Below, one piece after another: positions 3,001 through 9,000 of a stretch of 61,958 nucleotides of DNA. The stretch's first letter is position 1, and every line of letters begins with the position of its first letter. The position numbers were made by a program. This stretch comes from a virus (lineage: Duplodnaviria; Heunggongvirae; Uroviricota; Caudoviricetes), in IMG/VR virus record IMGVR_UViG_2939521961_000017; one strand, written 5' to 3'.

Positions 3001-6000
3001 TACAGAGTCGAACAAATGGTATTTATGTGTATCTGCGGCATGTGATTTGGTTCCTACTCAGGGTAACGACCCTCACCATGTAAGATTAAGTCCGCACAGG
3101 CTCATTAAAGTTCTGGAGCTTTTTAACGCCAGTCAGAGTAAAGCATTGCCATTTGCTGAACATTCGAAATATATATATGTAATGCATAAAAATCAAAGAA
3201 AATATCTCTCTATTTTCGAAGGGGATAAAACGCTTCCTGTTGTTGATTATATGGTGGTGTTGAATCATGGAACAACAGTTGATGGCGAAGAAAAAAATAT
3301 TATTTCTGCCGTGTTTTTAAGTAATATGGATGGCAACGTGCAAAATGTTCCTGTCCGACTCAAACTTAAATCTCAACTGAGAACTGGTTATGCAGAAAGA
3401 TATCAGGCTATAGCGTCTCAGTATAGCTCAAGGATTGGTGTGGATTATGTATCAATGATGCTACCATAATTATTATATTTTAGGCGTGGTGATTTTTTTT
3501 CGCCATGCCTATTTTATATTTATCATCACAATGATGTTGTTTATTTTTGTTTAAGTCTTCTAAGCTTCATGCATTCTAATGAGAATAATAATAGAGTTGT
3601 GCTGTATATAAAGCCAGAGTTAGTTAATAACTTTAAATTTAATGCTTCAGGATTTTCACTGAGAAAGTGAAAGGCATAAACTAAGTATACAGCTAAAGTA
3701 GCCGTTCCAATTGTTGGTCCAATATCGCCTTGATCATGAGGTTCAAGGTTTACATTGAACTTGAAGATTAGCCATTCAAATCCCCAAGTAAAAAAAACAA
3801 CTAATATCATGGCTGCGAATAATTTCGCGATGTTATCTGCTGATGGATTCATCAGAACAGATTGTTTCTGAAAAAATTCACAAAGTGAGAGTCCGAAAAA
3901 AATAAAAAAAAGTGGTCTGGAACTAAATTTTTCAAAAACTTTGAATAGGGTTTCCATTTTCTTTACCTTCAGGATTATATTAGCTATTCTGATACTTAGG
4001 CTACCAGAGCATTTGATCTTTGAGCTTGAACGTAATCACTCCACCATTGCATCAAACTCTGTCGCTCTATCAGATATTCTGCACGATTGTATGCTGCGAT
4101 AATTTCATCTTTTTTCGAGTGGGCAAGCGCTGCCTCAAGAACTTCAGCTCTGAATTTACCAGACTCCTCTGCCGCTGTTCGTGCAATAGAACGCATACCG
4201 TGAGCTACAAGCTCGCCTCCGAACCCCATTCGGATGATAGCTGCGTTGGCTGTTTGTTCATGCATATGATTAAGAGGCGCTTTTATGCTGGGGAAAACCC
4301 ATTCTCTATGCCCACTTATTGATTTCATTAATTCAAGGATGCGCAAAGCTTCTTTACTCAAAGGAACTTTGTGAAGCTTTTTCATTTTCATGAAATCAGC
4401 AGGAATGTTCCAAATGCTGTTGGTTGTATCAATATCAGACCACCTTGCGCGAACGGCTTCACCCGGACGAACCCATGTCAACAATTGCCATTCAATTAGC
4501 ATACGTGTTTCCAACCGGATTGACGCATTCGTCAAAGATTCCATAAACCTTGGCAATTCGCTTGGGGGAAGGGCAGGCATATTTTGCTTTTTTGGTTTAC
4601 TGAATCTTTGACCAAGGTTGTCAGCCGGGTTGAACTCAATAAGTTCTTCAGTAGCTGCCCACCGGAAGATTTCATTCAGACGTGAAATGATACGGCGTAG
4701 AGTTTCCAATACGCCTCGTTGCTCAATAGGATCAAGGTGTTGTTTTAAGAGCTTAGGTCGGATCTCATTGATAGGGACATTACCCAGACCGGGAAAGACA
4801 TTTCTCTCTAAGCTGCGCCAGATGTCTGCTGCATGGTCTTGTGAGATACCTGATGTCTTTACCTTCTCATCTAACCATTTCCGCGCTACGGCTTGGAGAG
4901 TGTGCTCAGTAGCACTCTTTAATGCCTTCGCCTTATCGTTGTTATGGATTTGGGGATCAACACCATTTGCCAGAAAGGAGAGATATTCATCACGTAAGGC
5001 TCTGGCTCTTGCAAGGGTAAGGTGAGGATATGTCCCAAGGCTCATTTTGGTTCTTTTCTTGCTCACGGGTACTGCATACCTGAAATACCAATTTTTCTTG
5101 CCTCCTTTCGCCAAAGGAGCGATTCGTAGAATCAGACCATCACCGTCAAACAAGTTGATTTCTTTATCGGCTGGCTTGGTGCTTTTGATTTCAGTGTCAG
5201 TGAGCTTCTTAGCGATTTTTGCCATTTTGGGACCCTCGGTTTTTGGACCCTTCTTAGTGGGTCCCATTCAGGGTGCCATAACTCGTAGTTCTCAGCAATT
5301 CTCACTGGACGACAATAGACGTAAAAAAGCCCGCAGAGCTTGTGCTGTGTGGGCTTAGTAGACTTCATTGAACTTCAAACAACTAAAAAGTGGAGCTGGC
5401 GGGAGTTGAACCCGTGCCCGAGCAATGCTTAACCCATTGAATAACAATGCATTCTCTGTTTAAAAATGCCTCAAGTGCATTTTGAGTGCATTTTCTGGTC
5501 CTCTCTTGGTCCATACAACGAGATTAAGTGGCCACTTGAAGTTCCGGCCCTGCGTCGCTATCTATTAACGGCTGACCTTGAACCATTTTTTCAACCATAT
5601 CGTTTGAAGGATATGGAACCCCGAGCTCAACCGTATTAGGGTTGGAACGGTGGGTTTCAACAAACGATGTTCCGTTCCATTTTTTTGAAAGGTAGATTAT
5701 TCCTTCAAAGGCTGCAGGGTCCTGTTTCTGAGACTCTAAGATCATGTGGAAGCCACGACGTTCTATCCCGCGTAAGAAGCTGGAGAAGCACTCCCTCAGT
5801 AATTCGTCATCCAAATCCTTGAACTTGATACCCTGCGCAAGAAACTCGAAATAATTAAGAATATATAAAAGGCCATTGATGGCATCCCTGTACTCATCGG
5901 GGACCTTCATATTCTTGTATTCTTCTTTGTCTGGGTTGCAGCGCCACTCTGATAGTTCTTGTGGTACATAACGCATGCCCCGATAGAATTTGGTGCTGTT

Positions 6001-9000
6001 CCGAAGCTGTTTTTGGTACTCCGGGCTTGTTCGGGTGTTAATGATCATGTTCAGCGTGTGGGACCTGCGCGTGTTAGCAGCGGACGTTATGCATTGTATC
6101 CACCATCCCATTCCAACGAGCATTCCTGTAACCATGATCGAAAGCGATGTTTGATAGGCCGGTGTGTACCTTAAAATTGCATATCCAATAAGGATAATCA
6201 CATAACAAACAGTGCTGAACATAGGAAGAAATTCTGCAGTGTCTGGATAGCGTTTTTTGATGAAGCAGAAGATAGAAGATATTGCTGCACCAGAACCAGC
6301 AATGACGATCAGCCAATCAATGATGGCGATGCTAAATGGTAGTTTTCCAGGGTAGATATAAGTAAAAAGTGCTCTGACAATCATCATTAGAGCAAAAATT
6401 GTAGCGCTGACGTTGACTAATGTTCTCGCCATCTTATTGATTCCTATAACAAAAGACCTCCGCATGGGAGGCCTTATTGTGCTAATGGAGGTTTGTTTTA
6501 AAATTTTAGGTTGTAGTTAACCTTCACCGAAACCTACGGTCAGTGTCTTTTTCATAGTGTTCACTCCAGTTGTGGTGCTTCGCCGATACCTACGTTAAGC
6601 TCTTGAAAAGTAAAAAAACATAAAAGTTTTAGAATTTGTGGAGCACAGGATAACAGTTTGTACTGGGACTCATCAAGTACTATCAGTGTCCTTGCACTGT
6701 CCTAGTGAAAATTTATTGCAATAAAGTAACTTACGTGAAGTCAAGAAATATATTTGCACTCCATTTCTTGCTATGATGTAAGTTATTGATTTTAATTAAA
6801 TTTACAATTACCTAAATGAACTATGGAAACTATCAATAACATAGATGATAGCTCATTTCACAAAAAGCAATGGTAGACTCATTCTTAATTTTCATCAGCC
6901 TTAAGCCTATGTACTCAGCTTGACACAACATTTATAGACGTTTTACCATCGTATTCAGCCAGGTATTTACCGTAATTGCGGAACAGCATTTCCGGCCCCT
7001 TATGCCCCATCTGCCCGGCAAGCCAGAAAAGGTTTACACCCTGGCTAATGTGTCTGGTGGCGAATGTGTGGCGCGTCTGGTACGGGTTACGGTAGCGCAC
7101 ACCAGCTTTTTTCAGGGTCGGCACCCATGCTTTTTTACGGATAGCGTCGGCGTTCGTCCAGGGTTCTCCCGTTTTCGGATCGCTGAATATGAACTCACTT
7201 TTCATAAAGGTGTATTGCTTCTGCGCCTGCAGGGCTGCCAGCGCCTCACTGTTCAGCTCCACCTTACGGGTACCGGCTTTTGTCTTGGTGCCTTTAAGTA
7301 CCCCTACGACACTGGCCGCCTGAACGTGGGCTGTGTTCGCGATGGTGTCGAGATCAGCCCAGCGCAGCGCGCACAGTTCTGAGCTCCGCAGACCTGTATT
7401 GAAAGCAAAGCGGAACAGGTTTTCCCATTCCCTGTACCTGCAGCTCTGGTAAATGGCAAGGGTCTCCGCTGGCGTGAACGGGTCAACCTCGTAATCGTCG
7501 GCGCTCGGGCTACTGTCGATCACGTGGTACCGGCTGGCGCTGACGAGGGTTACCGGGTTAATGGTCAGCAGGCCATCCGTAACAGCTTCATCAATGGCGC
7601 TGCGCAGAAATGACAGGTTATTCCTGATTGTTTTCAGCTTAGTTTTTCGGCTGGCTATCCAATTTTTTAGTATCGCAGGCGTCAATTCTGTTACATGTAG
7701 TTTATGTAGTTCTGATAGTGCTGATAGACATTTTTCGTAACCGCCAATGGTTGACGGCGACAGATTACGGTTTATGCAAATTTTCAGGTATTCATCAAGA
7801 TAGGACTTAATATTTTTGGTTTTCTTTACTACACCGAATAACTCCAGTTTTTTGGAATTGGGGAAATATTTCGCATATTCAAACGTTCCGCTGGCGATCT
7901 GATTTTGTATCTCCCCTAGCAGGCGCTCAGCATATTTTATACCACGTGTATTTGCCTCAAGCCGAGATAGGGGCTCCCTGCAAAGAACCCCTTTATATGT
8001 GAAAGTGATAACTAGTGTTGAAGCAGTTTTATGCTTACGAATAGTTACTCCTCTTGGCAGAGATAATAATCCTTGTTCTTTCTTGCCCATTTTGAAACCT
8101 CTATTAAGTCGACCCAACGCTCTTTAACCCCGTCGACTTTTAATACATGTACCCCTTCTTTCCATATTCCTCTTTGTATCCGTTTGTTAACGGCATCAAC
8201 CGTTTCTCCCGCGTTGCGGCAGTAGGTTGATATAGGTACGCAATCCAGCCCCACAGTTCACCTCACACAACATTCAGCCCACGACAGTGACACCACACTT
8301 CAAACATTCGTTTCACAATTTCACGACAGTAGAAACCGTCAACATCTCGCGTCAGGTCATAGCGATTGCCGAATGTCTTGCGAACCCATAACTCAAAAAC
8401 CGTATGCATGTATCACCTCCGTTGCATTGCGCGCAATTTTTTCAGGTGCTTTTCCTGCTCAGTGTCCGCCAGGATTTTGCAATACTGCTGGTGGTCAATA
8501 TGTTCGAACAGGCAGTTGAACTCACCAATGCATACCCGCCCGGAGTGTCCGTCCATACGTCGAAAGAACACAGAGCGGTCCGTACAGCGAGTAATCACCA
8601 CAGGGTATCCGGCCCTGTCCGTGTATATTTGCCCGCGTTGAATAAGTGCGAACATGAGATTATCCCCAGCGGCAAATCGAAAAAATAATCAGCGCAATCG
8701 ATATTGCAACACCTACAATTGCAAATGCTTCAGGCCAACTCATTGACTCACCTCCTGCGGCGGTTCTGGTAGAGGCATCCAGTGGGTTACATCGCATTCA
8801 GGGATGCTGATATCATCACCAAGCCACCCTTGACCTTCAGACCAGCATTGCACGTAATACCCGTATTCTGTGTTCACTACGCACCACTGTGCGTCGTTCG
8901 GCATTAGCTCACTACAGCTTATCCAACCATCCGGAGTTACCGGAACTTGCGGAATGGCTGTCTGCTCTCGAACGTCATTAGGCGCTATAGGTTCTGCTGC

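Follow-up and report, generated by a model that had tools for sequence, protein, structure and literature searches.

What is a 12-codon open reading frame (ORF) doing in front of a membrane protein gene at the edge of a prophage? The locus lies in IMG/VR virus record IMGVR_UViG_2939521961_000017, a stretch of 61,958 nucleotides (nt) that we will call the window. On its minus strand, next to the attachment (att) core of a lambdoid prophage, the window encodes a putative membrane protein of the DUF4760 family. The DNA in front of this gene contains a candidate promoter, the micro-ORF, and an intrinsic terminator, in that order. We found that the micro-ORF is conserved as a peptide and is paired with DUF4760 genes across the family, and that no antiterminator is conserved alongside it. 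These observations bear on whether the peptide is a leader that acts in cis or a product that acts on the DUF4760 protein; we tentatively favor the latter.

The features of the leader and the gene, in order of transcription, are as follows.

6647-6676, minus strand: candidate sigma-70 promoter, with -35 TTGATG (6676-6671), an 18-nt spacer, and the extended -10 TG-T-TATCCT (6655-6647)
6578-6599, minus strand: upstream imperfect copy of the 3' half of the micro-ORF, identical to 6522-6543 at 18/22 positions; it reads LNVGIGEA in frame, without an in-frame start codon
6564-6567, minus strand: Shine-Dalgarno (SD) sequence GGAG of the micro-ORF, 8 nt before its ATG
6517-6555, minus strand: unannotated micro-ORF MKKTLTVGFGEG-TAA, 12 codons plus stop, recognized by its SD and its conserved C-terminal …VGFGEG
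6443-6475, minus strand: intrinsic terminator from a terminator scan, with a 9-bp stem (6475-6467 / 6461-6453), the loop CATGC, and a T-rich tail
6442-6445, minus strand: SD sequence AGGA of the DUF4760 gene, 9 nt before ATG 6432, within a TATAGGA that is present in 7/9 aligned enterobacterial leaders
5524-6432, minus strand: DUF4760 membrane protein gene, 302 amino acids (aa) plus stop, from Pfam, RefSeq (WP_001431537.1), AlphaFold2, hydropathy, and homologs

The terminator hairpin (6475-6453) reads AAGGCCTCC-CATGC-GGAGGTCTT and is followed by TTGTTATAGG. The scan gives it 9 pairs, and the region has 4 terminator-like sites, versus 1.2 +/- 1.1 in shuffled sequences. It begins 41 nt past the stop codon of the micro-ORF, and 20 nt separate it from the DUF4760 start. 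This strong terminator is internal to the cassette, not at its end; after the coding sequence there is only a weak hairpin. The terminator and the DUF4760 start are too close together to accommodate a promoter, so the gene can be reached only by reading through the terminator. As for the promoter, its elements CTTGA and TG.TAT..T are invariant in nine aligned enterobacterial leaders. It scores 8/12, which is under the threshold of 9, so the promoter scan did not report it. If it is active, transcription would start near 6640.

The longest ORF for the membrane protein is 5524-6465 (313 aa), and its ATG (6465-6463) is within the loop of the hairpin. We take ATG 6432 to be the real start, because RefSeq uses it, homologs from other genera align from it, and AGGA lies 9 nt upstream. 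Apart from this correction of the start, the initial annotation was right that a membrane protein of about 300 aa is encoded here. The three upstream elements that it pointed out are also present at the positions above: the tiny ORF, the hairpin (CCTCC-CATGC-GGAGG plus a T-rich tail) that overlaps the longest possible start, and the imperfect direct repeat.

The two copies of the direct repeat (6522-6543 / 6578-6599) are the sole pair of such quality in 5300-7000. Among 300 shuffles, 5% had such a pair anywhere and none had one within 100 nt, so the repeat exceeds chance. Only the closest relative (L020; L numbers denote loci that we compared) retains it. The upstream copy is probably a decayed tandem duplicate of the end of the micro-ORF (LNVGIGEA versus LTVGFGEG) and not a regulatory repeat.

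We also noticed that in 6430-6555 the micro-ORF, the 28 codons past its TAA, and the DUF4760 ORF are in one frame, with a single stop between them. So we considered that read-through of the stop codon might give a fusion protein. We rejected this as a conserved mechanism: at other loci the stop-to-start distance is 60-92 nt and is often not a multiple of three. None of 221 family proteins has the micropeptide motif fused to the DUF4760 protein.

If the peptide matters, then its sequence should be kept where the surrounding DNA is not. We compared relatives of the DUF4760 protein with at least 45% identity, drawn from viral, metagenomic, and genomic loci; these gave 33 distinct leaders and 26 distinct micro-ORF motif sequences. 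Every such relative with upstream DNA has a micro-ORF that ends in G[FYV]G[EA]G-stop (33/33 distinct leaders). At loci from Dryocola, Shewanella, Pseudomonas, and Pantoea the upstream regions are otherwise unalignable, yet each has the micro-ORF, a GC-rich hairpin, and a T-tract. Examples of these micro-ORFs are MKNTFTVGFGEG, MDKTFAVGFGEG, MKMLKTGVGEG, MKLETGVGAG, and MRNLEIGYGEG.

In all 26 distinct sequences, the motif is the last five or six residues before the stop, and the N-terminal part varies in both sequence and length. The amino acids of the motif are fixed while their codons vary: Gly is encoded by GGT, GGA, GGC, or GGG, Phe by TTC or TTT, and Tyr by TAC or TAT. Such variation at third positions with fixed residues is, by comparison of these sequences, a signature of selection on the translated product. 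The Glu codon does not vary, being GAA in 25/25 sequences that have Glu (one Pseudomonas leader has Ala instead). The stop codon is TAA in 23/26 and TGA in 0/26, and the next base is C in 13/26. Nearly all of the homologous micro-ORFs are preceded by GGAG or AGGAG; a few have GGGG or a weaker site.

The terminator is also present in all 33 leaders, starting 14-45 nt (median 25) past the micro-ORF stop. In 31 of the 33, an automated scan places the start of the long ORF 4-34 nt (median 20) past the terminator stem. The stems vary by lineage, with pairing kept by compensatory changes (nine leaders). In several lineages the hairpin begins only 14-16 nt past the stop, and its 3' arm is the sole SD-like sequence for the DUF4760 gene.

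The motif is specific to this position. In six frames of 718,593 nt, the pattern G[FYV]G[EA]G-stop has 78 matches, and all of them are micro-ORFs just upstream of DUF4760 genes, with exactly one match per locus and zero on the opposite strand. We also searched 2.9 million viral contigs for back-translated VGFGEG-TAA. Of 37 exact matches, 25 lie immediately before a DUF4760 gene. Most of the remaining 12 are ends of longer ORFs or lack an SD; by our rough estimate a few tens of matches are expected by chance in these contigs, and the 12 are consistent with this.

A few individual cases are worth recording. Of those 12, only the one on viral contig L137 (1783-1803) looks like a possible orphan: its MVGFGEG-stop has a strong SD (GAGGAGG) and a terminator, although the nearest 1.3 kb contains no gene for DUF4760. 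A viral contig (L134, 700-787) has a 100-residue ORF that ends in …IGYGEGISNDEFDGFVGFGEG, with two copies of the motif. Enterobacter EA-1 looked like a natural case of a broken micro-ORF, and we set it aside as uninformative because its DUF4760 gene is also frameshifted several times and indel errors in the assembly are probable. Finally, the selectivity filter of potassium channels has the signature T-[VI]-G-[YF]-G-[DEN], which T-V-G-F-G-E, E-I-G-Y-G-E, and D-G-F-G-N from the micro-ORFs match; this may be a coincidence.

Is the pairing limited to close relatives? Most of the distant DUF4760 genes that we examined (~22-33% identity) are also preceded by micro-ORFs, with [DE]GFGNG or looser forms of the motif, and overall, DUF4760 genes from Gamma-, Beta-, and Alphaproteobacteria are paired with a micro-ORF that has a G-x-G-type motif. 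The DUF4760 proteins of Rhodobacterales (Sulfitobacter, Thalassococcus, Roseovarius, and Epibacterium) have 226-243 aa and are 20-26% identical to the C-terminal domain of the window's protein. At nine loci from Rhodobacterales and Phyllobacteriaceae, the micro-ORFs contain one to three copies of [DE]G[FM]GNG. Rhodobacterales-type examples are MTLEGFGNG, MTFEGMGNG, and MTSDGFGNGLPRDGFGNG; the Phyllobacteriaceae locus has MRAEGFGNGVLREGFGNGISKEGFGNG. Where the unit is repeated, most of the spacers have R or K as their last residue (LPR, VLR, ISK, and FPR). At most of the nine loci just 3-23 nt separate the stop of the micro-ORF from the DUF4760 start, whose SD is weak or missing, and there is no terminator; at two loci the gap is 50-60 nt. 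The pattern [DE]G[FYM]G[NED] has 17 matches in these micro-ORFs and 1 match elsewhere in six frames of 116 kb.

At other distant loci, we saw these arrangements.

L091: micro-ORF MYSLEGYGEI, then a terminator
L057: micro-ORF MASMFREGDGYA, which overlaps the DUF4760 start
L149 (Azoarcus): micro-ORF MIMNEGTGIG, then a terminator
L150: micro-ORF MKLDEGHGLG, then a terminator
L153: micro-ORF MKLNEGIGFA, which overlaps the DUF4760 start
L152 (Stenotrophomonas indicatrix), 2760-2900: intact tandem micro-ORFs MNTAVGEG and MNTLNTAVGEG, then one terminator and a DUF4760 gene of 327 aa

The motif variants at these distant loci are EGYGEI, EGDGYA, NEGTGIG, DEGHGLG, NEGIGFA, and TAVGEG (two copies). We give the looser forms less weight because they were recognized after the fact, and at three distant loci (L099, L102, and L107) we saw no such motif. 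Judged by its layout, the tandem pair at L152 is the intact counterpart of the decayed duplicate at 6578-6599 of the window. Since the motif precedes distant DUF4760 genes that have no terminator, it is the peptide, and not an attenuator, that is conserved across the family.

Three of the Sulfitobacter-type loci (L089, L090, and L096) have another hairpin, with covarying stems, the conserved loop GGAAGAACUGGC, and a U-tract. Located ~70-110 nt before the micro-ORF, it is itself preceded by a TATATT -10 box, and nothing in Rfam matches it. It could be a separate regulatory element.

Does the leader nevertheless work as an attenuator, as the initial annotation suggested? In a classical attenuator of the trp, his, or phe type, translation of the leader would choose between an antiterminator and the terminator, with the direct repeat taking part in the switch and the Gly codons being regulatory. 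Part of the suggestion held up: an SD-led leader ORF and an intrinsic terminator are directly upstream of the gene, and both the micro-ORF and the terminator hairpin occur in 33/33 leaders. Three of the last five codons of the micro-ORF encode Gly, and the leader has a weak, non-significant resemblance to Phe_leader in Rfam (18.4 bits versus the gathering cutoff of 55; E = 5.8). But a mutually exclusive antiterminator is missing. For nine enterobacterial leaders, RNAalifold gave no conserved antiterminator, just the terminator plus a weak hairpin of 7 pairs within the micro-ORF. The minimum free energy of the whole leader is no better than that of shuffled sequences (z = -0.2). When we compared the purine-rich 3' end of the micro-ORF, or its SD, to the 5' arm of the terminator by eye, we found a weak 5/6 match in the E. 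coli type only; comparable pairing to the 5' arm was absent from the Pantoea and Pseudomonas types. In Rfam, nothing matched the leader at either gathering or permissive thresholds. Furthermore, the Gly codons are all common ones, conservation extends to the residues between the glycines (F/Y/V and E), and some relatives retain the peptide without any terminator. With no conserved antiterminator, and with a direct repeat that is conserved only in the closest relatives, the classical attenuator is not supported, and we consider it very improbable.

What kind of protein is the micro-ORF paired with? The initial annotation described a hydrophobic N-terminal third and an unassigned C-terminal domain. 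Topology and structure predictions agree with the former, giving four transmembrane (TM) helices followed by an all-alpha domain, and a profile search assigned the latter to DUF4760 (PF15956), a family of unknown function. The match scores 58.9 bits, versus a gathering cutoff of 25 (E = 8.2e-16), and aligns residues 117-263 of the 313-aa ORF to positions 8-141 of the 141 in the profile. The RefSeq name is likewise "DUF4760 domain-containing protein," and this DUF is the only annotation on the gene. AlphaFold2, with an alignment of 27 sequences, gave four long N-terminal helices and an all-alpha C-domain, with a predicted local distance difference test (pLDDT) of 83; for the C-domain alone, the pLDDT is 90.7 and the predicted template modeling (pTM) score is 0.83. 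From hydropathy and the positive-inside rule, the N-terminus and the C-domain are predicted to be cytoplasmic (N-in/C-in).

Full-length relatives, with 45-97% identity, are found in Enterobacteria, Shewanella, Pseudomonas, Serratia, and Pantoea. Many polar residues are invariant across them, including those of GMGWWIQ in TM4, RRxHT just behind TM4, LNYFEFLAQG, and DLD, as well as four inside the TM helices (D39, Q94, S98, and Q113). All of the gamma- and alpha-type sequences share T126, N193, E196, and D206, and conservation is 90% or more at R122, H125, R134, and D208. The motifs (R/K)xQHT…R, after the last TM helix, and LNYxEF…G…DLD are also in canonical DUF4760 members of 150-220 aa. (The Pfam family comprises 525 cluster representatives at E <= 1e-3.) All of the protein's matches in PHROGs are of unknown function, a search of NCBIfam gave zero matches, and no recognizable protease or transporter fold was found for the DUF4760 domain. 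We also considered an Rx4-6H motif like that of HEPN proteins, and alignments checked by eye do not have it consistently. In E. coli O111:H11 88-19539 (L005), the insertion sequence ISVsa5 (IS4 family) is inserted at the 3' end of the DUF4760 gene, whose annotated product there has 310 aa (WP_024184092.1); the micro-ORF is intact.

We tentatively propose that the peptide is a trans-acting product that is made in excess and acts on the DUF4760 protein. Most transcripts would end at the terminator, giving an abundant RNA of ~195 nt, with its end near 6445, that encodes the peptide alone. A minor read-through mRNA of ~1.2 kb would give the membrane protein as well, so that the peptide would be in large excess over DUF4760. 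In Rhodobacterales, weak translational coupling would give the same imbalance between peptide and protein. The role of the terminator (or of the coupling) would thus be to set the peptide-to-protein ratio. In this view, the peptide would be short-lived, would bind the DUF4760 domain in the cytoplasm, and, most simply, would be an inhibitor that keeps a membrane effector inactive. In a prophage, if an infecting phage shuts off transcription or translation, the supply of peptide would fall and the membrane protein would be freed. This would be the logic of a labile antitoxin or of an abortive-infection system.

We favor a product that acts on DUF4760 because the peptide is constant while the RNA layout around it changes, from terminator to coupling to overlap. 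The peptide unit seems to have been amplified in three independent ways, by internal repeats, by tandem micro-ORFs, and by the decayed copy in the window, which suggests selection on peptide dose. The strong SDs and the TAA stops fit the efficient production of a defined peptide. There is also a precedent for the layout, namely mccA-terminator-mccB of microcin C. Several points weigh against this proposal. A soluble, Gly-rich peptide of 9-12 residues is expected to undergo rapid degradation and to be a weak binder. The abutment of the motif on the stop codon (26/26) and the invariant GAA codon for Glu would fit an element that acts in cis equally well or better. The activity of the promoter, the efficiency of the terminator, and the translation of the peptide are all predictions from the DNA. 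As to defense, PADLOC-DB 2.0 gave no significant match to the protein; the sole weak match is to DrmMII (E = 0.0025, 14.7 bits, 75 residues). In Rhodobacterales the DUF4760 gene is at a conserved chromosomal locus, between an NDUFA12-like gene and clpX-clpP, which argues against a toxin-antitoxin or defense role for the whole family; the family is thus not intrinsically a defense family. The broadest form of our proposal seems doubtful to us: that DUF4760 and the micro-ORF are a family-wide two-component module, in which a ligand of ~6-12 residues (…[EVI]-G-x-G-x-G) restrains a membrane effector, and which in prophages would be a peptide antitoxin and membrane toxin that together sense host shut-off.

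The most serious rival is a leader peptide that acts in cis, which we consider a real contender though on balance unlikely. The nascent …G-x-G-E-G would slow termination or arrest the ribosome at the stop codon, whether intrinsically or in response to a small molecule or to translation stress. The position of the ribosome would then set the read-through of the terminator or, in Rhodobacterales, the use of the DUF4760 start, and the released peptide would have no function. This would explain why conservation is confined to the five or six residues that precede the stop (26/26), with the rest variable, and the invariant GAA and the C that often follows the stop (13/26) hint at constraint on the mRNA. 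The micro-ORF is always beside an element that limits expression, either a terminator that starts 14-45 nt past the stop or a start codon, and the hairpin is often just past the edge of the terminating ribosome (14-16 nt), with a 3' arm that doubles as the SD for DUF4760. A motif that stays the same while the protein falls to ~22% identity is expected if its constant partner is the ribosome. And a C-terminal Gly with an acidic penultimate residue reportedly slows peptide release (Pierson et al. 2016; Bjornsson et al. 1996), which would make Glu-Gly-stop a slow context. However, we found no conserved alternative RNA structure that would couple the position of the ribosome to the terminator, and the distance from stop to hairpin is variable. 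TAA, the strongest stop codon, is preferred and TGA is never used, which differs from known termination-arrest leaders. The motif is sometimes internal or in one to three copies (MFREGFGNGGKAVLI, or three copies of EGFGNG). To our knowledge, glycine-rich sequences are not typical arrest motifs.

Two other explanations seem less likely to us. The micro-ORF might encode a precursor from which a hexapeptide (a VGFGEG or EGFGNG unit) is processed or exported, for signaling or akin to a ribosomally synthesized and post-translationally modified peptide (RiPP), with DUF4760 processing, exporting, or sensing it. The conserved C-terminal unit would suit this, as would the one to three repeats in Alphaproteobacteria with spacers that end in R or K, as in multi-copy precursors. 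Also in line with this explanation, the TM helices of the membrane partner contain invariant polar residues, and mccA, which encodes the microcin C precursor, has this same layout. But the micro-ORF product has no signal peptide, and no gene for a modifying enzyme, a transporter of the ATP-binding cassette (ABC) or major facilitator (MFS) superfamilies, or a receptor is conserved nearby. The DUF4760 domain is predicted to be cytoplasmic and lacks a recognizable protease or transporter fold, and variation of the central residue (F/Y/V/M) does not suit specific chemistry at this side chain. We consider this explanation improbable. Alternatively, the locus might encode a small regulatory RNA of ~195 nt that ends at the terminator, in which case the ORF would be incidental and the conservation would be of RNA sequence. 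The unit from promoter to terminator is of a suitable size, and the prophage carries isrK, C4, STnc100, and AgvB RNAs. This seems hardly credible to us, as the substitutions in the motif are at third positions of codons, with residues fixed and flanks that do not align; strong and correctly spaced SDs are present in nearly all lineages; and besides the lack of an Rfam match, the conserved structure is just the terminator and one short hairpin.

How does our proposal compare to known systems? Type III toxin-antitoxin systems such as ToxIN consist of an antitoxin made of RNA repeats, a terminator, and an endoribonuclease (ToxN/AbiQ). As in ToxIN, the proposed inhibitor is encoded first, a terminator would set its excess over the effector, the system is borne on a mobile element, and it would be sensitive to shut-off if the inhibitor is labile. 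Where ToxIN has an array of RNA repeats, the inhibitor would be a translated peptide (the direct repeat has just two imperfect copies, and only in the nearest relatives), and the effector would be a membrane protein, with four TM helices and an all-alpha domain that matches only DUF4760 in Pfam, and not a ToxN/AbiQ endoribonuclease. Regulatory leader and arrest peptides include TnaC, SpeFL, the Erm and Cat leaders, and SecM/MifM. Like TnaC, SpeFL, or the Erm leaders, the micro-ORF is a short upstream ORF with conserved C-terminal residues, before an expression-limiting element of one gene family. Unlike for these leaders, we did not find a rho-utilization (rut) site or an alternative structure that sequesters the SD, and the motif is Gly-rich, prefers TAA, and can be repeated or internal.

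Some prophages carry accessory genes ("morons") for inner-membrane proteins that cause exclusion or abortive infection, such as P22 SieA, HK97 gp15, and lambda RexB. The DUF4760 gene resembles them in being an accessory gene with its own (here candidate) promoter, located at a prophage boundary or a junction between modules and encoding a small polytopic inner-membrane protein, with expression in the lysogen likely. It differs in having a conserved micropeptide partner; we know of none for SieA, gp15, or RexB. In Pfam, PADLOC, PHROGs, and fold searches, we found no sequence or fold relationship to these three proteins. Another small phage product is AimP, the hexapeptide of the arbitrium system of SPbeta-like phages, which has a signal peptide, is secreted and re-imported, and acts on the receptor AimR in Gram-positive hosts. 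Like AimP, the micropeptide is phage-encoded and its functional unit would be the last six residues before the stop; unlike AimP, it has no signal peptide, and there is no AimR-like gene here.

In the microcin C operon, a tiny ORF (mccA) and an intrinsic terminator give an abundant short transcript, and a minor read-through transcript gives mccB, which puts the peptide in great excess over the protein (Zukher et al. 2014, PMC4231749). The locus in the window similarly has a very short ORF, an intrinsic terminator, and a downstream partner gene, here as read from the sequence. The partner is a TM-DUF4760 protein instead of an adenylating enzyme of the MccB type, and there are no genes like mccC, mccD, or mccE. 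The peptide ends in Gly (G-x-G-E-G) instead of Asn, and the motifs are unrelated.

Which element does this cassette belong to? The window has two elements in tandem at the tmRNA (transfer-messenger RNA) gene ssrA: the lambdoid prophage, which spans 5415-60900 and is integrated in ssrA, and a second island on its left. The features that define the boundary are as follows.

5390-5414, minus strand: att core and left boundary of the prophage; a 25-bp duplicate of the 3' end of ssrA, matching 60901-60925 within the tmRNA gene exactly
5474-5495, plus strand: tandem 11-bp repeat AGTGCATTTTG / AGTGCATTTTC from a repeat-family search; by inference, a candidate pair of arm-type sites for the integrase
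6915-8117, minus strand: integrase of the lambdoid prophage (Pfam Arm-DNA-bind_2 and Phage_integrase), immediately upstream of the cassette and on the same strand

The tmRNA gene is complete at 60899-61261 on the minus strand. We infer two elements because an integrase of the CP4-57/P4 type (3996-5267) and its island are to the left of the duplicated core, and a lambdoid-type integrase with ~55 kb of prophage is to its right. Loci L003 and L004 have an identical att core and right flank and a different left flank. In strains HCP5S3_I4 and PS1Thumoskin9, ypjA or other genes are to the left of the core, and the core, the 1.5-kb block at 5415-6914, and the lambdoid int are kept as one unit. Since this unit is constant beside changing left flanks, the cassette lies between int and att and is part of the lambdoid prophage, as the initial annotation had placed it.

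Its description of the cassette as a moron is also supported. The window is from E. coli O26:H11: strain 11368 of this serotype matches 5350-6950 with 100% identity, and many O26, O103, and O111 genomes have the same sequence. The 1.5-kb block is present in just 79 of 5,426 complete E. coli genomes, always with at least 99% identity. The cassette is thus a dispensable accessory ("moron"-type) part of a mobile lambdoid prophage. The 9-mer GTGCATTTT occurs 4 times in the whole 62-kb window, as two tandem pairs (at 5475/5486 and 60790/60801). These pairs, with 11-bp spacing (5474-5495 and 60790-60811), are ~60-110 bp from the two att cores, and they are probably arm-type sites bound by the prophage integrase.

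Related cassettes are found at other positions. Three (L038, L040, and L072) are on the opposite strand, with the gene for the Q antiterminator on one side and the holin/endolysin genes on the other. One (L012) is ~400 nt from a tRNA gene (the att site) at the end of a prophage of P. aeruginosa, and two (L016 and L044) adjoin umuC in other elements (islands). The GenBank record for phage phi467 (LN997803; L002) extends beyond the att core into a CP4-57-type island, so the ends of this deposited "phage" record are not the ends of the phage genome.

We made a few further observations in the window. The island on the left, which has the CP4-57-type integrase, encodes a protein with HATPase_c/HEF_HK, a protein with Response_reg_2 (PF19192), and a membrane protein of 138 aa (1-3469 and 3541-3957). 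These genes may be an uncharacterized conflict system; PADLOC gave an insignificant match only, for the second (Response_reg_2) protein (E = 0.007). Where this island begins, immediately downstream from the duplicated ssrA core, there is a partial match to the Rfam family IsrM (5323-5397, minus strand; E = 8e-13), with 51.5 bits, far under the gathering score of 376. Within the prophage (15733-15921 and 22496-23125), homologs of isrK and the C4 antisense RNA, STnc100, and AgvB are found at Rfam gathering scores, along with three tRNA genes (Met, Arg, and Arg).

Across 8 million full texts, we found the name DUF4760 once, in an unrelated list, and nothing relevant for PF15956 or for the peptide motifs. 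Morons, leader peptides, and operons with a peptide, a terminator, and a partner are known in general; a family-wide micropeptide partner of DUF4760 appears to be undescribed. The pairing with the micro-ORF is the first functional handle on the DUF4760 family, and one can synthesize or mutate a peptide of 12 residues or provide it in trans. Should the peptide turn out to be a ligand or inhibitor, this would be a new kind of peptide-controlled membrane effector in prophages of pathogenic E. coli, Pseudomonas, and others. If the two proposed components do form a module, then in prophages it would define a new type of abortive-infection or toxin-antitoxin system, with an antitoxin that is too small for annotation. 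If the micro-ORF is instead a leader that acts in cis, then its end would be a new and widely conserved motif for arrest or termination. Either way, gene callers overlook a conserved coding element in thousands of genomes.

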